Source: a virus
Lineage: Duplodnaviria > Heunggongvirae > Uroviricota > Caudoviricetes
Length of the DNA: 6,734 nucleotides
Virus record (IMG/VR): IMGVR_UViG_648276647_000003
Coordinates: 1-6,734 of that record
Direction: 5' to 3' (one strand)
Shown here piece by piece: positions 1 through 6,734 of the stretch. Position 1 is the stretch's first letter; each line of letters opens with the position of its first letter. The notes under the pieces are model-generated. The model had not been told where the DNA came from and ran no database searches. It saw nothing but the letters and a program-made list of their open reading frames with translations. The position numbers and the translations under genes are program-made.

Positions 1-1
1 C

Positions 2-193
2 CCCTGTCTTGCGGTGGTATCGCGGCGTCATATGGACGGATGGGTGCCGGTATTTACCCAGGGCGAACTGATGTTTGAGGATATTGACTTGCTGGTCATG
101 CTGCAGCTGGTGGCGCGGGTGGTCGCCGATTCGCTGGGAAATTTTTTGCAAGGACTCCCTACCAAAGAGACGCCCATCCCGCCAGCGGAATAA
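2..193 (+). CDS. Tail assembly chaperone (lambda gpG / P2 gpE analogue), C-terminal fragment; 5' end lies outside the window
   Basis: Frame is open from the window edge to TAA at 191-193 (...ELMFEDIDLLVMLQLVARVVADSLGNFLQGLPTKETPIPPAE*). It lies directly upstream of the tape measure gene, contains a slippery heptamer, and is overlapped by an open -1 frame, which is the classic chaperone arrangement. This frame is absent from the supplied ORF track because it has no in-window start. Confidence 0.5.
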   Translation, partial: PCLAVVSRRHMDGWVPVFTQGELMFEDIDLLVMLQLVARVVADSLGNFLQGLPTKETPIPPAE

Positions 194-390
194 CCTTCAA
201 TAGCCTGCCGGGTGGTGAAGATTTTATTCTTCGTCCGGCGCTTGCCTTCCATATTGACCAGAAAGATCTTAACAGTGGTGCGGTAGATCTCTGTCGCATC
301 GCGCTTCTTAATGACTACCTTGATATGTGCGAGGACAACGATGTCCGGGTAGAAAAATGGAGAGAGGATAATGAACGCCGAGACTATTAA
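2..390 (+). CDS. Predicted -1 frameshift fusion product of the tail assembly chaperone (gpGT / P2 E+E' analogue); slip at 142-148, extension ends at TAA 388-390
   Basis: The -1 frame is closed upstream by TGA at 85-87 and open from 88 to 390. After a slip on T TTT TTG it reads FFARTPYQRDAHPASGITFNSLPGGEDFILRPALAFHIDQKDLNSGAVDLCRIALLNDYLDMCEDNDVRVEKWREDNERRDY*, overlapping the tape measure ATG (371) by 20 nt. Confidence 0.4.
142..148 (+). promoter_or_regulatory. Programmed -1 ribosomal frameshift slippery heptamer T TTT TTG (X XXY YYZ in the zero frame)
   Basis: Zero-frame codons are aat(140-142) ttt(143-145) ttg(146-148), so the heptamer is correctly phased, 45 nt before the chaperone stop, and the -1 frame is open downstream. 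Confidence 0.5.
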
Positions 391-2359
391 AGATTTCCTC
401 GTCTCGCTTGGCTTCAGTGTGGATGATGCAGGAGCGAAAAAGTTCGGTTCTGTCCTCGCCGGTACAACTGCAAATGTCATCAAAATGGGACTGGCCGTTG
501 AAGGAGCTGCGCTGTCCGTGGTGGCCTTCACGGCTAAGATCGCCTCCGGCCTGGATAATCTTTACTGGGCGTCACAGCGCACCGGCGCGACGGTCCAGGG
601 AATTCAGACTATTGGCTATGCGGTTTCGCAGGTTGGCGGTAGCGTGGACGCTGCGCGATCTTCTCTGGAAAGCCTCTCCCGGTTTATTCGTAACAATCCC
701 GGTGCAGAAGGCTTTCTGAATCGCCTGGGCGTACAGACCCGTGATGCCAGCGGTAACATGCGTGACATGGCCGCTATCTTTACGGGCGTTGGACAGAAAC
801 TCAGCAGCATGCCGTATTACCGGGCTAACCAGTATGCGCAGATGCTGGGCATTGACGAAAATACCCTTATGGCGATGCGCCGGGGTGTGGGTGGTTTCTC
901 CGGGCAGTACAGCGCAATGGCGAAAGCTATCGGCTTCAATGCTGACGAGGCGGCCAGAAGCTCCAACAAATTTATGACCTCCCTGCGTGAGTTTGGCGCG
1001 ATGGCAGGCATGGCCCGTGACAAAATCGGCTCTAATCTTGCGGGTGGACTTGCGGGTTCGTTGGACACCCTGCGCCGCCATATCCTGGACAACTTCCCGC
1101 GTATCGAGCAGACCCTGACGAAAGCCATAAAAGGCATTCTGGCGCTCGGGGATATTATCGGGCGGCTGTTCTTCAGACTGATTGAAGGAACATCAGGCCT
1201 CATCACCTGGTGGCAATCGCTGGATAAGCAAACGCGGGAGTTGATCTCGCTGTTTGGCGCACTGACGATTGCGCTGCGCATTCTGAACAGTACGTTCTGG
1301 ATGTCGCCGATTGGCCTCATTACCGCGCTGGCGGCGGGGATTGCCCTCCTGTGGGAGGACTATCAGACCTGGAAGGAAGGCGGCGACAGCCTGATTGACT
1401 GGGGCAAGTGGAAACCGGAGGTTGATGCCGCGCTGAAGATGGTTCGTGACCTTAAAACGACCGTTAACGACCTGGTGAAAGCGCTGGCGAAACTGCTCAA
1501 TATTGACCCCAAATCATGGTCCCTGAAGTGGGATTTCAGCAACTTCATCGACCAGATGGGCGAATTCAGCAAAATGCTGAACATGATCGCCGACCTACTC
1601 AACGCTATCAAAGATGGCCGCTGGGTTGATGCCGTCAGCATCGGCAAACAGATACTTAATCAGGGCAGCGAAAATCCGTCAGCGATGCCGATGGTTACAG
1701 ACAGCGCTAACAGTACTGCCGACTGGATTAAAGAGCACTGGGGATTCGATCCCCGCAGCGTGGGCCGGACGGTACGCGGCTGGTTTGGTGATGATGAGCC
1801 GGAACAATATGCACAGGCTACGAAACGAGGAGAACGGAATAACAATCCGGGAAACCTTAATTTTGCTGGTCAGGTAGGGGCTTCTCTTGAACGCCCGGGC
1901 GGGCGATTTGCCAGATTTGAAACTGCTTTTGATGGATTACGGGCTCTTGCTCGTCAGTTAATGCTGTACGCCGGACGGGGAATAAACAGTGTGGAGAAAA
2001 TTATCTCTACCTGGGCACCTGCGTCTGATAATAACAACACAACTGCGTATATCAGGGCTGTATCGCAACGACTGGGAGTGGATCCCCGGGCTGCCCTGAA
2101 TATGAGCGATCCGCAAACCATGTCAGCATTGATGAGCAGCATTATCCAGCATGAAAATGGAAGAAATATCTATTCTCGAGAGCTGATTAATAAGGCTGCC
2201 GTAGCGGGAATTAGTGGCAAAGTGACAGAGGTTAACCAGCAAAATACCTACCACATTTACGGTGGCGGAGATCCGCACGCTGTCGGTAATGAGGTTGCAC
2301 GTCGGCAACAGTCTGCAAATGCTCAGGTCATGCGAAGTAATCAGGTGAGGGTGGGTTAG
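371..2359 (+). CDS. Phage tail tape measure protein (662 aa)
   Basis: Long ORF immediately after the chaperone/frameshift pair, with RBS ggagagagg a few nt before the ATG. The N-terminal two thirds is Ala/Gly/Leu-rich with hydrophobic segments (e.g. LISLFGALTIALRILNSTFWMSPIGLITALAAGIALLW) typical of tape measure proteins; a distinct C-terminal domain follows. Size and position fit a contractile-tail tape measure. Confidence 0.85.
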   Translation: MNAETIKDFLVSLGFSVDDAGAKKFGSVLAGTTANVIKMGLAVEGAALSVVAFTAKIASGLDNLYWASQRTGATVQGIQTIGYAVSQVGGSVDAARSSLESLSRFIRNNPGAEGFLNRLGVQTRDASGNMRDMAAIFTGVGQKLSSMPYYRANQYAQMLGIDENTLMAMRRGVGGFSGQYSAMAKAIGFNADEAARSSNKFMTSLREFGAMAGMARDKIGSNLAGGLAGSLDTLRRHILDNFPRIEQTLTKAIKGILALGDIIGRLFFRLIEGTSGLITWWQSLDKQTRELISLFGALTIALRILNSTFWMSPIGLITALAAGIALLWEDYQTWKEGGDSLIDWGKWKPEVDAALKMVRDLKTTVNDLVKALAKLLNIDPKSWSLKWDFSNFIDQMGEFSKMLNMIADLLNAIKDGRWVDAVSIGKQILNQGSENPSAMPMVTDSANSTADWIKEHWGFDPRSVGRTVRGWFGDDEPEQYAQATKRGERNNNPGNLNFAGQVGASLERPGGRFARFETAFDGLRALARQLMLYAGRGINSVEKIISTWAPASDNNNTTAYIRAVSQRLGVDPRAALNMSDPQTMSALMSSIIQHENGRNIYSRELINKAAVAGISGKVTEVNQQNTYHIYGGGDPHAVGNEVARRQQSANAQVMRSNQVRVG

Positions 2360-2946
2360 TGGATATTCTCTCTACACTTTTTCATCAGCAGAGTAGAAAA
2401 ATAGGAATGATTGTTCCCAGTGTTGTTATTTCAGAGAAGCATACAGATATGCTTGAAATAACAGAGCATCCGGTAGAGGTCGGGGCCGCTGTCGCTGATC
2501 ATGCCTATAAAAAACCGTCAGAAGTGGTGATGGAGGTTGGTTTTGCCGGTGGCGGCGCATTGCTGGATTTTGCCAGTAACCTGACGGCTACCAGCCTGCT
2601 CGGCCTGAGTCCTCAGCAGACGTATCAGGAGCTACTGGGTCTGCAGGAAAGCCGTATCCCCTTCGATGTGGTAACCGGTAAACGACTGTACAGCAACATG
2701 TTGATCCGGGCGCTGGAAGTGACGACGGACAAGACAACCGAAAACGTCCTGTCCGCCGTCCTCACCCTGAGGGAGGTCCTTATCTCCCGGACACAGCAGA
2801 TTACCGTCGCGGATAAAACCAACATGAAGGAAGGGGCCAGCACGTCGGCGGTACAGAACAGCGGCAACAAAACCACAAAGCCTCCAGATACTTCACTGCT
2901 GAAAAGCATCACGGGTAACGTGGCGTCATTACTGGGAGGCGGATAA
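2359..2946 (+). CDS. Phage tail/baseplate-associated protein, function unassigned (occupies the position of Mu gp43-like proteins after the tape measure)
   Basis: 195-aa ORF whose GTG start overlaps the tape measure stop (TAGTG at 2357-2361), preceded by a gaggg RBS. An alternative ATG at 2407 would give a shorter product. Family assignment is by position only. Confidence 0.55.
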   Translation: MDILSTLFHQQSRKIGMIVPSVVISEKHTDMLEITEHPVEVGAAVADHAYKKPSEVVMEVGFAGGGALLDFASNLTATSLLGLSPQQTYQELLGLQESRIPFDVVTGKRLYSNMLIRALEVTTDKTTENVLSAVLTLREVLISRTQQITVADKTNMKEGASTSAVQNSGNKTTKPPDTSLLKSITGNVASLLGGG

Positions 2947-3248
2947 TGACAATTCAGGAAATTCCGCTGACAGCGGACAATCAGCAGTTCAGCATCGTCC
3001 TGGGGGGTGTCACCTGGCGGATTAGCATCATATGGCGCGATCTTTACTGGATTATGGACCTGCAGAACGACAGAGGGGAGCCGGTAATCTCCGGTATTCC
3101 TCTCGTCACTGGTGCTGACCTGCTGGCGCAGTACGCCTGTATGGGGCTTGGTTTTAAGCTGGTGGTGGTCTGTGATGACAACACACAGGATTACCCCACA
3201 AAAACTGACCTGGGCGGTCGCAGCCATTTACTGGTATCAACGGAGTAA
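2946..3248 (+). CDS. Small phage tail/baseplate-associated protein (100 aa), function unknown
   Basis: ATG overlaps the upstream stop (ATAATG at 2944-2948) and its own stop lies 2 nt before the next ATG, so it is tightly coupled within the structural operon. Confidence 0.55.
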   Translation: MTIQEIPLTADNQQFSIVLGGVTWRISIIWRDLYWIMDLQNDRGEPVISGIPLVTGADLLAQYACMGLGFKLVVVCDDNTQDYPTKTDLGGRSHLLVSTE

Positions 3249-3250
3249 GC

Positions 3251-4321
3251 ATGTCACAGAACTGGATGAGACATTTCGAGCTGCAGCTTGTGGACGGGAA
3301 CGGTCAGGGAATTGAGCTAAGTGATTTCAAAGTCACCTTTACGATCGACTGGTTCAACATCAGCAGCGCGTCCCGGGTAGGGACTATCAAAATTTATAAC
3401 CTCTCGGCAGATACTGTGAACCGAATTACCGGGCAGGAGTTTTCGAAAGTGCGTCTGATTGCCGGTTACGACGGTATCGCGCCGGAGGTGTCAGCAAGCG
3501 ACGTAGGGACCGTGCGGGAAGTTGACGCGGCGGACGTGGGCCAGAGAGATGGCCGCAACTACGGACTGATTTTCAGCGGTGAAATTCGCTACTCGGTCAC
3601 AGGAAAAGACAGTCCGGTTGATACCTACGTCCTGATTCAGGCAGCAGATACTGATCTGGCTTTTGCCACCAGTATAACCTCACAGACGCTGGCTGCCGGT
3701 TACACGGTCGCTGATGTGAACCGTGCGCTGATGAAAGACTTCGAAGCCAAAGGCGCGACCGAAGGCCTGACGCCTGAAATGCCTGCTACTGTATTCCCCC
3801 GGGGGCGGGTACTCTTTGGCATGACGCGGCATCTAATGGATAACGTAGCCGGACAATGTGGCGCAACATGGCAATTCGTGGACGGTCAGCGCCAGATGGT
3901 GGCGAATAACGAATATGTTCATGAAGCGATTGTGCTCAACAGCGCTACCGGGCTTATTGGCATGCCGCAGCAGACCATCGGCAACGGCGTAAACGTCCGC
4001 GCGCTTATTAATCCGAACATCCGGGTTAATGGGCTCATTCAACTGGATCAGGCTTCTATCTATAAAACAGCTTTACCGAATGACGATATTGCTAAAGCAG
4101 CGGGACGTTACTTTGACGAAACAATAGATGGCAACTCTAACGTTACCCTGCCCGTGTCCAAACAAATGACGGCCAGCATCGCAACTGATGGCGTTTATAT
4201 TGTGCGCGGGATTATGTACACTGGCGACACAAGGGGCCAGGCCTGGTACATGGATATGATGTGCGAAGCGCGCGGTGCGCAGGATATGCCATCCAGCACT
4301 GCTTTGCAGAGAGGATTATAG
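3251..4321 (+). CDS. Putative baseplate hub protein (Mu gp44 / P2 gpD / T4 gp27-like), 356 aa
   Basis: 356-aa ORF located between the tape-measure-proximal proteins and the central spike, which is the conserved hub position in Mu-like tail modules. The hub assignment is positional and by size, not a verified motif match. Confidence 0.55.
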   Translation: MSQNWMRHFELQLVDGNGQGIELSDFKVTFTIDWFNISSASRVGTIKIYNLSADTVNRITGQEFSKVRLIAGYDGIAPEVSASDVGTVREVDAADVGQRDGRNYGLIFSGEIRYSVTGKDSPVDTYVLIQAADTDLAFATSITSQTLAAGYTVADVNRALMKDFEAKGATEGLTPEMPATVFPRGRVLFGMTRHLMDNVAGQCGATWQFVDGQRQMVANNEYVHEAIVLNSATGLIGMPQQTIGNGVNVRALINPNIRVNGLIQLDQASIYKTALPNDDIAKAAGRYFDETIDGNSNVTLPVSKQMTASIATDGVYIVRGIMYTGDTRGQAWYMDMMCEARGAQDMPSSTALQRGL

Positions 4322-4323
4322 AA

Positions 4324-4668
4324 ATGAAACGATGGATATTTTCATTGCTGGCGTTAGTGTCTGTTGGTGTAAGTGCAAACACCATAACGATGCAATGCGG
4401 CAACTTTCGTATGGATGCGATCCCTGACTCATTATTTAAAATCAATGGCGAAACAGTAACGTCCCAAAAAGTAAAAATGTTGGGTAAAGACGGTACAGGC
4501 ATGCAGATCAAAATGGGGCTGATGCCTGCCAAAGATGGCCACAATTATGGGTTCGAGTATATCCATCGACCGGGCACCGAAACGCGTTTCCTGAACGTCC
4601 AGCTTCTGCAGAACAGCATGGACGCGCCTAGAATCATCGGGTCTTTCCCATGCAAAAAAGTTAATTAA
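4324..4668 (+). CDS. Small secreted/periplasmic protein, paralog A (114 aa precursor); cargo (moron) gene, function unknown
   Basis: ATG at 4324 is preceded by an agagagg RBS and starts 2 nt after the hub stop. N-terminus MKRWIFSLLALVSVGVSA-NTITMQC is a typical Sec signal peptide with an AXA-type cleavage site and no lipobox. Mature protein has Cys near its N-terminus (QCG) and near its C-terminus (FPCKK). Lower GC than flanking genes by eye. The track's longer 4261 start would overlap the hub gene and place the signal peptide internally. Confidence 0.7.
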   Translation: MKRWIFSLLALVSVGVSANTITMQCGNFRMDAIPDSLFKINGETVTSQKVKMLGKDGTGMQIKMGLMPAKDGHNYGFEYIHRPGTETRFLNVQLLQNSMDAPRIIGSFPCKKVN

Positions 4669-4680
4669 CAGGGGGGATTA

Positions 4681-5046
4681 ATGAAGCGCTTAGCTCTCTT
4701 ATCTCTTGTTTTTATGTCGTATAGCGTGCTTGCAGCGCCTGTTTTGCGCTTTAAGTGCGGTGACGATAAATTTGTAATGTATGTGAATGCCTCAATGAGT
4801 AAACAGGCAGTCATAATGAACGATCAGCTAACAGAAAATTCAGCCACTGACCAGTATCCGTACGGTGACTTGGGGGATTCGGTGGTCATCACATTTGATG
4901 TATGGGGGGCGAATGGTGGGATGCATAACCACTACACAACTGTTTTCCCTAACGATTCAAAAACTATTAAACAAATAGTTCAGATTTTAGACGCAGATGA
5001 TCGCCCCCGTGGTGATGCCATCTATAAGACCTGCACGAAAATGTAG
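4681..5046 (+). CDS. Small secreted/periplasmic protein, paralog B (121 aa precursor); cargo (moron) gene, function unknown
   Basis: RBS gggggga lies just upstream of the ATG at 4681. Signal peptide MKRLALLSLVFMSYSVLA-APVLRFKC. Mature protein has the same two-Cys layout as paralog A (KCG ... KTCTK) and a shared C-terminal block (VQIL...PR...C.K versus VQLL...PR...C.K in A). AT-rich by eye. Confidence 0.7.
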   Translation: MKRLALLSLVFMSYSVLAAPVLRFKCGDDKFVMYVNASMSKQAVIMNDQLTENSATDQYPYGDLGDSVVITFDVWGANGGMHNHYTTVFPNDSKTIKQIVQILDADDRPRGDAIYKTCTKM

Positions 5047-5071
5047 GAACCTTATCGCAGACACCATTTAA

Positions 5072-5093
5072 CCCGCCACCCGGCGGGTTTTTT
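5072..5093 (+). terminator. Rho-independent terminator: 6-bp GC stem cccgcc/ggcggg, 4-nt loop, T6 tract
   Basis: cccgcc(5072-5077) accc ggcggg(5082-5087) tttttt(5088-5093), beginning 26 nt after the paralog B stop codon. Confidence 0.6.
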
Positions 5094-5112
5094 GCTTTCT
5101 GGAGCCTACTAA

Positions 5113-5865
5113 ATGGCAGTATCTGACCAGACCCGCAGCGGCGACCTTGCCGAAACATTCAAATCTGAACGGGAAACAACAAAGAACCAGATCCGTGTCG
5201 CCTTGCCTGGCATTATTCAGTCATTCGATCCTGACGCGGTGACGGCGGTTGTGCAGCCAGCTATCCGTTCGGTTGAAAAGGATAACTACGGTAACCGCAT
5301 TACCAAAAATTACCCATTGCTGGTGGATGTGCCAGTGGTATTCCCGCGCGGCGGAGGCTGTACGTTGACTTTTCCGGTAAAAGCCGGGGATGAGTGTCTT
5401 GTCGTTTTTGCCGATCGTTGTATTGATTTCTGGTGGCAGAGTGGCGGGATACAGGAGCCAGTCGATGACAGAATGCATGATTTATCGGATGCGTTTTGTA
5501 TTGTCGGTCCCCAGTCGCAGGCAAGGAAGATTAGCGGTATTAATACCAGTGCCACACAGTTGCGTAGTGACGACGGCAGCACCTATTTTGAGCTTAATCC
5601 TGATACCAGGAAAATTAAAATTGTCGCTCCGGGTGGTCTTGATGTGGTTGCCCCTCTGGCTGATTTTTCTGAGAAAGTAACCATTCATGGCCTGTTAACC
5701 TGGATGGGTGGCATGGTGGGGTCTGTTGTTTCTGGTGTGGCTTCAAAAATCACTGGTGCTGTTGAGTTTTTGGGGAGCGTGAAGGCTAACGGCAAGCCAA
5801 TCGATGATACGCACACTCATGGCGGTGTTCAGCGCGGTGGAAGCAGTACCGACGGGGTAAACTGA
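5113..5865 (+). CDS. Baseplate central spike protein (P2 gpV / Mu gp45 / gp138-like), 250 aa
   Basis: RBS ggag lies 8 nt upstream of the ATG. The N-terminal OB-fold region (PLLVDVPVVFPRGGGCTLTFPVKAGDECLVVFADRCIDFWW...RMHDLSDAFCIVG) matches the hallmark pattern of gpV-type spikes. The Gly-rich C-terminus contains HTHGG, resembling the His-containing apex of spike proteins. Confidence 0.85.
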   Translation: MAVSDQTRSGDLAETFKSERETTKNQIRVALPGIIQSFDPDAVTAVVQPAIRSVEKDNYGNRITKNYPLLVDVPVVFPRGGGCTLTFPVKAGDECLVVFADRCIDFWWQSGGIQEPVDDRMHDLSDAFCIVGPQSQARKISGINTSATQLRSDDGSTYFELNPDTRKIKIVAPGGLDVVAPLADFSEKVTIHGLLTWMGGMVGSVVSGVASKITGAVEFLGSVKANGKPIDDTHTHGGVQRGGSSTDGVN

Positions 5866-6218
5866 TGCGATACAGACGTGAAGACGCCGATGGCGATTAC
5901 ACCTTTGGCAGCGGTGATGACACCTGGCTGATTAACTCACCGGAGGCCGTGGCGCAGGCGGTAAAAACGCGATTCGAATTGTGGTATGGGCAATGGTTTC
6001 TCGACACCACCGAGGGGACTCCGTGGATCCAGTCCGTACTCGGTAAGCAGAAGCCGGAAACCTACAACCTGGCGATCAGAAAACGCATTCTGGAAACGCA
6101 GGGCGTTAAATCAATCCTCTCTTTCAATACGACGGTGGATACCACGACCCGACGTGTCATGTTTTCCGCTGAAATCGACACTCTCTATGGAATAACGACT
6201 GTTACATCGGAGGCGTAA
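5865..6218 (+). CDS. Small baseplate wedge protein (Mu gp46 / P2 gpW / T4 gp25-like position), 117 aa
   Basis: ATG overlaps the spike stop (TGATG at 5863-5867). Size and position between spike and baseplate J fit the gp25-like wedge protein; a TRFELWYG segment loosely resembles the gpW motif. Family assignment is tentative. Confidence 0.6.
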   Translation: MRYRREDADGDYTFGSGDDTWLINSPEAVAQAVKTRFELWYGQWFLDTTEGTPWIQSVLGKQKPETYNLAIRKRILETQGVKSILSFNTTVDTTTRRVMFSAEIDTLYGITTVTSEA

Positions 6219-6712
6219 TGGCTCTGAACCTTGATTCTCTCGGTTTATCTGCAAAGGTAACCGCGGAGGGGATCAGTGCGCCTGATTATCAGACGATACT
6301 CAGCACCCTGATTAGCTATTTTCAGCAGATTTATGGCAGTGATGCCTACCTCGAACCGGACAGCAAAGACGGCCAGATGGTGGCTCTGATGGCGCTGGCG
6401 ATTCATGATGCCAATAATACTGCGATAACTGTCTACAACTGTTTTTCACCGGCAACCGGCTATGGGGCTGCACTGACCAGTAACGTGAAAATAAATGGTA
6501 TTTCACGTAAAGGCGCGACGAACTCTACGGTTGATTTGCTTCTTACAGGAACTGCCGGAACAACCATCATTAATGGCAGCGTGAAAGACAGTAATAATGT
6601 GATATGGCGTTTGCCTGCTTCAGTGGTGGTCGGCGTGGATGGTACAGTGATGGTGACCGCAACATGTTCCGTCAGTGGTGCAGTGGCGGCCGCTGGCTGG
6701 AACTATCACTGA
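6218..6712 (+). CDS. Baseplate J-like protein (Mu gp47 / P2 gpJ / T4 gp6-like), N-terminal 164 codons; apparently truncated by a 1-nt frameshift, possible pseudogene or sequencing error
   Basis: ATG overlaps the upstream stop (TAATG at 6216-6220), RBS ggagg. The ORF ends at TGA 6710-6712, but another frame is open from about 6660 to the window edge and reads LAGTITEINTPTRG, which fits the expected continuation of a baseplate J protein. Intact homologs are usually around 300-380 aa. Confidence 0.6.
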   Translation: MALNLDSLGLSAKVTAEGISAPDYQTILSTLISYFQQIYGSDAYLEPDSKDGQMVALMALAIHDANNTAITVYNCFSPATGYGAALTSNVKINGISRKGATNSTVDLLLTGTAGTTIINGSVKDSNNVIWRLPASVVVGVDGTVMVTATCSVSGAVAAAGWNYH

Positions 6713-6734
6713 AATTAATACGCCAACCCGTGGC

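Follow-up and report, generated by a model that had tools for sequence, protein, structure and literature searches.

An accessory-gene slot in the baseplate operon of SEN34-like phages carries two predicted exported proteins with a possible role in superinfection exclusion

HK97 gp15, an inner-membrane protein, is encoded by a superinfection-exclusion moron among tail genes, and Z/fun of phage P2 is a hotspot next to baseplate and tail genes. T5 Llp is encoded beside the gene for the receptor-binding (tail-tip) protein whose function it counters; Llp and the Cor proteins of T1 and phi80 are lipoproteins, and T4 Spackle is helical. These systems are compared here with a locus on a 6,734-nucleotide (nt) stretch of viral DNA (IMG/VR record IMGVR_UViG_648276647_000003, positions 1–6,734; Caudoviricetes), referred to at its whole length as the window, which belongs to the tail and baseplate module of temperate myoviruses of the SEN34-like (Brunovirus) group and is 98% identical to a prophage of Escherichia coli strain C25. 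Between the baseplate hub and spike genes of the window lie two open reading frames, ORF A and ORF B, followed by an intrinsic terminator. As in the tail-cluster morons and hotspots exemplified by HK97 gp15 and P2 Z/fun, accessory genes stand amid tail genes, with deviant base composition, a terminator on the 3′ side and variable content, and as in known tail hotspots, defence systems are found among the alternative cargo. Unlike classical morons, the slot has no promoter that could be found and possesses a position-conserved resident first gene, A. HK97 gp15 resides in the inner membrane, whereas A and B are predicted to be soluble exported barrels. T5 Llp, the Cor proteins, and Spackle and Imm of T4 are exported and act outside the cytoplasm to block superinfection at the envelope; the two proteins resemble them in being small, phage-encoded and equipped with export signals, yet unlike Llp and Cor they have no lipobox cysteine at the cleavage site, and unlike the helical Spackle they are all-beta in structural models. 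No sequence relationship of either to anything of known function was detected. Cargo in a hotspot of a phage tail module is a kind of arrangement already known; this hotspot and its A family are widespread, cleanly delimited and uncharacterised.

The slot architecture is well supported: a resident gene (A), whose product is predicted to be exported, comes first, exchangeable cargo (in this case B) next and a fixed terminator last, arranged as follows between the two conserved flanking genes (amino acids, aa).

3251–4321, + strand: baseplate hub, conserved left flank (phrog_196 baseplate hub, E 1.5e-89; weak Pfam E217_GP41 match)
4324–4668, + strand: ORF A, 114 aa, predicted to be exported, lineage-resident (phrog_3443)
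4324–4377, + strand: predicted signal peptide of ORF A, residues 1–18
4669–5069, + strand: exchangeable cassette, comprising ORF B, its ribosome-binding site and a 3′ spacer, as defined by homology breakpoints
4681–5046, + strand: ORF B, 121 aa, predicted to be exported, rare cargo
4681–4734, + strand: predicted signal peptide of ORF B, residues 1–18
5070–5093, + strand: intrinsic terminator, conserved right border of the slot, from a terminator scan
5101–5104, + strand: ribosome-binding site of the spike gene, GGAG
5113–5865, + strand: central spike, conserved right flank (N-terminal domain Pfam PF18352, E 1.4e-44, and GpV Apex motif)

The borders of the slot were obtained by comparison with approximately 130 related loci gathered from E. 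coli genomes, one-genome-per-species contigs and viral contigs, 80 of the more than 570 loci on viral contigs being taken in. Homology of the hub with relatives continues through the gene up to ORF A. Nucleotide homology with differently loaded relatives stops at 4661–4668, within the last codons of A, and restarts at 5069–5071, where the terminator stem begins, which leaves 4669–5069, with ORF B alone, as the exchangeable cassette. ORF A begins 2 nt past the hub (TAGAAATG), the same spacing that separates plug and hub, and is thus packed as tightly as the structural genes rather than set apart from the operon, while 12 nt lie between the A stop and the B start. A preliminary description, made from the sequence of the window, had treated A and B as one horizontally acquired unit. 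These breakpoints isolate B, and A is resident at the site in ∼80% of the lineage, so the pair does not hold together as proposed, although ORF B taken singly does behave as rare, horizontally moved cargo.

The two genes differ greatly in distribution. An ORF A homologue was found directly 3′ of the hub in 98 of ∼124 loci having both hub and spike, a position held down to ∼50% hub identity, in Escherichia, Salmonella, Klebsiella, Citrobacter, Enterobacter, Pantoea, Serratia, Yersinia, Rahnella and other Enterobacterales; it is absent from ∼20% of loci. Among 5426 complete E. coli genomes, 279 have a homologue, as do 19 deposited phage genomes, and the family (phrog_3443) comprises 332 protein clusters. 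ORF B, by comparison, occurs in 5 of the 5426 E. coli genomes, 350 of which carry the module, always at this site and in each case in a strain from an animal. No ORF B match was obtained among 50,697 phage records; the family amounts to 15 clusters at 90% identity among 5.8 billion proteins and to 6 genuine representatives among 1.84 billion. A 1588-aa “relative” from the latter type of representative search proved to be a tandem-repeat protein with summed weak repeat matches and was discarded as a homologue. Presence in some phages and absence from close relatives, as expected of a moron, accordingly describes B and describes A only in part. In a few relatives (L038, L045 and L049) the hub gene is followed immediately by the spike gene. 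Conservation at this exact position, together with composition matching the flanks, had been named beforehand as evidence against accessory status. For A the position is indeed conserved, but its GC content is unlike that of the flanks and it is missing in some relatives; for B neither feature was observed, and its reading as accessory is kept.

ORF A homologues were also encountered outside complete tail modules, in satellite-like elements (L034, L035, L037, L039, L041 and L042; e.g., L041 730–7201). These exhibit the order P4-type primase (Toprim, D5_N or DUF927), Dit, plug, hub, A, spike, a helix-turn-helix gene and host rlmJ, with no gene for tape measure protein (TMP), gp25-like protein or baseplate J, and the spike is not preceded by a terminator. 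It would be unusual for a satellite to possess a tail-tip set of its own.

Across ∼118 loci, 36 slot architectures were distinguished between the hub (or A) and the terminator and spike. Conserved flanks, variable content and sharp common breakpoints thus coincide at this junction, as in an accessory hotspot, and known defence systems are among the alternative cargo. Behind A, relatives carry PD-Lambda-1 (E 2.8e-82) or PDC-S42 (E 1.7e-36); others have an Mrr-like nuclease, Mrr-like nuclease/ZorD-type matches, a YafO toxin with its partner (RefSeq annotation), a DUF2335 protein, a T5orf172 protein, or one of several further exported proteins. The commonest cargo behind A, in 26–34 of ∼124 loci, is a two-gene pair encoding proteins of 243–276 aa and 123–142 aa (e.g., L102 7023–7853 and L098 7778–8206), for which no Pfam or PADLOC match was found and which is a candidate defence or toxin pair. 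The first gene past the hub is predicted to encode an exported protein in ∼110 of 115 loci; in 98 of these it is A, in 8 a member of a lipoprotein family and in 4 one of another secreted family. By analogy with P2 Z/fun and the HK97 gp15 moron, the slot shows the pattern of a phage accessory and defence hotspot. The literature yielded no description of a hub–spike hotspot in SEN34-like phages, nor of SEN34 virion proteomics.

The right border of the slot is a hairpin with an 8-bp GC-rich stem (5070–5089; AACCCGCC / GGCGGGTT), the loop ACCC and a T run. A hairpin of the form ACCCGCC-loop-GGCGGG with a T run, followed by the spike ribosome-binding site, precedes the spike in nearly all loci, behind any cargo, and is retained in the three empty-slot loci. 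In an alignment of 53 distinct terminator sequences, the region 5′ of the stem is unconserved and the region 3′ of it is conserved; stem cells are paired in 97.3%, and four of the seven pairs display compensatory changes, on both sides. The hairpin and T run had been reported as the cargo's own intrinsic terminator. The element is there, on the + strand, but it belongs to the conserved frame upstream of the spike whatever the cargo. A strong, conserved terminator is thus embedded in an operon of late structural genes, and no promoter ahead of it was detected in the window. Slot and terminator go together, because in Serratia fonticola (L052–L054, 3646–4450) both are found at the plug–hub junction; there a secreted 113-aa protein, from another family, and an ORF B homologue are encoded ahead of a terminator hairpin of the same kind, and hub and spike are adjacent. 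ORF B always lies directly behind another exported-protein gene and ahead of this kind of hairpin. It starts 10–14 nt past the upstream gene in every context found, leaving no room for a promoter of its own, so it must be co-transcribed with its upstream neighbour. With this spacing and the promoter scan described below, autonomous expression of the moron type is not supported. Of the usual features of a moron, the locus has a downstream terminator that is not cargo-specific and a deviant base composition, and has no promoter of its own that was found. A second terminator-like hairpin, with 12 pairs and a weak T tail, was noted at 275–302 on the + strand, upstream of the TMP gene and inside a small DUF6889 gene region.

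GC content is 44.9% in ORF A, 43.4% in ORF B and 44.4% for the two together, as compared to a mean of 52.7% in 366-nt windows of the flanks (standard deviation 3.0, minimum 44.0); 0–0.6% of flank windows were this low. An index resembling the codon adaptation index ranged over 0.61–0.65 for A and B and over 0.71–0.74 for the structural genes. The AT-rich runs described before were located at 4432, 4466 and 4960, and the windowed GC comparison bears out the lower GC content ascribed to both genes, with codon use departing in the same direction. The view of this segment as a compositionally deviant accessory region within an otherwise conserved baseplate operon is likewise sustained, the hub–spike junction being truly variable.

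Signal peptides were judged by heuristic residue features, namely a basic n-region, a hydrophobic h-region and small residues at −3 and −1. In both ORFs, MKR is followed by a hydrophobic core of 12–13 residues and a V-x-A cleavage motif: ORF A is predicted to have the core WIFSLLALVSVGV and cleavage motif VSA before N (Kyte-Doolittle 2.6), and ORF B the core LALLSLVFMSYSV and cleavage motif VLA before A (Kyte-Doolittle 2.05). All 98 A-family members and every B-family member show these features, with the residues themselves variable. The Sec-type signal peptides originally attributed to both products are thus recovered as sequence predictions, and the hub, spike, plug and gp25-like proteins show nothing comparable. 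A lipobox cysteine at +1 was found in neither protein, the first cysteine being residue 25 in A and residue 26 in B, 7–8 residues past the predicted cleavage site. C25 and C110 are invariant in the A family. The B family has 44 invariant columns, including the motifs WGxNGGMHNHY and DADxRPRGD and C118, and C26 is nearly invariant. Each family therefore has one cysteine of its pair near the mature N terminus and the other near the C terminus, and these conserved pairs would fit a disulfide formed in the periplasm.

ORF A is a full-length member of phrog_3443 (E 7.9e-51; residues 1–114 over 115 profile positions), and ORF B had no PHROG match. That neither exported protein belongs to a recognised structural family agrees with the Pfam, PHROG/NCBIfam and PDB-sequence searches, in which phrog_3443 was the single family found, for A. 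A PADLOC MTase match for ORF B (E 0.031, 10 bits) was regarded as noise. AlphaFold models built from the family alignments (predicted local distance difference test score 82 for A and 79 for B) are 8-stranded up-and-down β-barrels of the small calycin/avidin-like kind, with mature proteins of ∼96 (A) and ∼103 residues (B). The models are of usable confidence and define fold class, not function. An outer-membrane 8-stranded barrel of the Lom/Ail/OmpX type was rejected: A and B are too short (below ∼150 residues), and strand length and C terminus are wrong. Paralogy of A and B was rejected as well (mature-region hhalign E 0.12, probability 0.5%; BLASTP E 5), a 70% probability in full-length profile comparison being caused by the signal peptides; the two have fold class and cysteine placement in common, nothing more. 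Compared with the PliC/MliC/PhiA inhibitors, neither has a Pfam MliC (PF09864) match, and identity is 4–13%. Scores as high or higher are obtained with avidins, the Cap15 barrel and designed barrels, which makes the resemblance one of generic fold.

ORF A is diverse, with at least 26 alleles at 85% identity and a median identity of 69% between phages with a hub identity of 85% or more. Its N-terminal hairpin is variable and its C-terminal two-thirds are highly conserved. In L033, from Serratia aquatilis, three tandem ORF A paralogues of two subtypes follow the hub (6092–7459); no recognisable TMP hydrolase domain and no spike match were found in this locus. The number of alleles, the 69% median identity and this tandem triplication together suggest an arms-race signature in A.

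The remaining genes of the window are those of a tail and baseplate module, and the TMP among them has an internal hydrolase domain.

371–2359, + strand: TMP
1820–2185, + strand: TMP-internal peptidoglycan-hydrolase (endolysin-like) domain, TMP residues ∼484–605, from PDB 7q47 and PHROG matches
2359–2946, + strand: Dit-like protein
2946–3248, + strand: Pam3-gp18-type plug
5865–6218, + strand: sheath-initiator/gp25-like protein
From 6218, + strand: baseplate J

The stop/start overlaps by which the structural genes had been described as coupled were located at 2357–2361 (TAGTG), 2943–2948 (ATAATG), 5863–5867 (TGATG) and 6216–6220 (TAATG). The RefSeq name of the spike gene product is “membrane-puncturing spike protein.” Matches of the TMP domain include PDB 7q47 “Endolysin” (E 5e-14), 9vvp Gp29 (E 1e-19), phrog_873 endolysin and phrog_7182 tail injection transglycosylase, and in relatives with ∼90% identical hubs the endolysin-like domain is replaced by a Pfam SLT domain.

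The explanation tentatively preferred, to which we assign somewhat less than an even chance, is that the baseplate operon contains an accessory slot whose exported products A and B block superinfecting phages at the envelope. Hub, slot, conserved intrinsic terminator and spike follow one another in the SEN34-like baseplate operon, the slot being hypervariable. The first position is nearly always occupied by a gene for a predicted exported protein, usually ORF A, and the cassettes behind it would be exchanged through recombination events between the 3′ end of A, which is conserved, and the terminator. ORF B is a rare second β-barrel predicted to be exported, and would be transcribed together with A. 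Sec would take both proteins to the periplasm, and they would probably act at the envelope, halting the tail tip or DNA of incoming phages (superinfection exclusion) and thereby protecting the lysogen or already infected cell. Exclusion appears the most likely role by analogy, on the basis of hotspot context, export signals, diversification of A and the precedents of HK97 gp15, T5 Llp and T4 Spackle and Imm; the analysis shows architecture, conservation pattern, export signals and fold, and the periplasmic location, expression timing and exclusion function of A and B are what we infer. In a broader and rather unlikely form of this proposal, ORF A and its homologues would make up a widespread and so far unrecognised class of periplasmic anti-injection proteins, hard-wired beside the tail-tip genes throughout a lineage of enterobacterial temperate myoviruses and found even in P4-like satellites that have a hub and spike set of their own. 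ORF B and the other exported first-position genes would be analogous replacements, and the terminator would anchor cassette exchange in a defence hotspot not described before.

Several observations weigh against exclusion as the function. The + strand of the window gave no sigma-70-like promoter, though one that is weak or non-sigma-70 may exist, and synonymous sites at the 3′ end of the hub are no more conserved than elsewhere in the gene, with no signal of an embedded promoter; production of ORF A may be confined to the late phase, when the tail genes are expressed. Which A allele a phage carries is independent of its spike allele (Spearman 0.00 in comparisons of close relatives) and, by allele-by-domain cross-tabulation, of its TMP hydrolase type; no phage-side target is indicated. 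Among close relatives, A was correlated with neither spike nor hub. For both proteins, nothing of use came from Pfam (no family at E ≤ 0.01), NCBIfam, PADLOC or PDB sequences. Retention of ORF A in the satellite-like elements also fits a role tied to the tail tip.

Four other explanations were weighed against superinfection exclusion. One, with a small chance of being correct, is that A, and possibly also B, acts in the periplasm as an inhibitor of the TMP-borne peptidoglycan hydrolase of incoming virions, blocking wall penetration or lysis from without. Models for such inhibitors are T4 Spackle, which acts against the gp5 lysozyme, and PliC, MliC, Ivy and PhiA. The window TMP has an endolysin-like domain and its relatives have either that or SLT. 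The three A-less, empty-slot loci, which represent at least two lineages, miss exactly this domain by a clean deletion (window residues ∼476–589), and where A is missing but the domain is kept, another exported protein or a lipoprotein stands in its place. The co-absence is based on three loci only, however, and the same A allele (≥85% identical) pairs with hydrolase domains of two different sequence families, subtype 0 occurring with 10 SLT and 9 endolysin-like domains and the window subtype with 4 and 6. L033 has three A paralogues and a TMP with no recognisable hydrolase domain, the A-carrying satellite-like elements have no TMP gene at all, and neither A nor B has a Pfam MliC/PliC match; the link between ORF A and the TMP hydrolase is weak. 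It is very unlikely that A and B are a single horizontally acquired two-gene moron with its own terminator, since the breakpoints set B apart alone, ∼80% of loci have A at this position, even at hub identities as low as 50%, A is carried by 279 E. coli genomes and B by 5, the terminator precedes the spike behind any cargo, and no promoter was found. Such a moron would nevertheless account for two genes that are both AT-richer than the flanks, both encode predicted exported proteins and are followed by a terminator, and for the few relatives with hub and spike adjacent (L038, L045 and L049); the S. fonticola unit of secreted gene, B and terminator, located elsewhere, indicates that slot and terminator may once have moved together.

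It is quite improbable that A is a tail-tip protein with a phage function in assembly, stability or penetration, its hydrophobic N terminus being membrane-active or anchoring and B being a diverged extra copy. The position of A, tightly packed at 2 nt past the hub stop, is conserved, A is kept in the minimal Dit-plug-hub-A-spike blocks of P4-like satellites that have no other tail genes and no terminator, and it is present in the isolated, viable phages SEN34, vB_EcoM-606R2, Mulock, GZ7 and YP3. But the N terminus is canonical for Sec (basic n-region, 12-residue core, V-x-A) with a sequence free to vary, and the invariant cysteine pair suggests an oxidising compartment, whereas virion assembly occurs in the cytoplasm. 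Moreover, ∼20% of loci have intact modules with unrelated exported proteins instead of A, and A alleles are far more divergent than the hub. A comparably low probability attaches to A and/or B being lysogenic-conversion factors that aid the host in an animal niche as periplasmic ligand or metal binders or in stress or serum resistance, in the way that lambda Bor and Lom are host-directed. Small calycin/avidin-like barrels typically bind ligands, the invariant His, Asp and Asn clusters of B (GGMHNHY, DADxRPRGD) could bind metal or ligand, and all five B-carrying E. coli are of animal origin. This explanation is opposed by the failure to find a promoter for lysogenic expression, by the neighbouring cargo of relatives, which is mostly of anti-phage or toxin type rather than virulence genes, and by the confinement of the A and B families to this phage module.

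The hotspot is well delimited and easily cloned, having the conserved 3′ end of A on one side and the conserved terminator on the other, and the host prophage family is common in E. coli, Salmonella and Klebsiella. It could be mined for new anti-phage genes, as several frequent cargo families have no Pfam or PADLOC match. The two exported small-barrel families are candidates for envelope-level exclusion, a class far less catalogued than cytoplasmic defence and one that bears on the host range of phage therapy in Enterobacterales. If A and B are ordinary accessory genes with no phenotype, little changes.

Members of the ORF A family are present in existing annotation under names that carry no function. 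One A subtype, at the same genomic position, has the RefSeq name “STY1065/STY2022 family phage-derived protein,” which, like phrog_3443, gives no function; NCBIfam contained no model matching the family so named, and the literature contained no biological mention of these locus tags. In Salmonella phage SEN34 (L002, 3411–3752), the annotated SEN34_20 (77 aa) is N-terminally truncated. The full ORF has 113 aa with a predicted signal peptide and is an ORF A homologue of 61% identity. Two records in the collection of loci are attributed to other bacteria, Chryseobacterium sp. 18061 (L012) and Bacillus sp. AFS073361 (L048, a 255-bp contig), and are 86% and 98% identical, respectively, to this enterobacterial prophage hub; both probably reflect contamination or mislabelling in the source assemblies.

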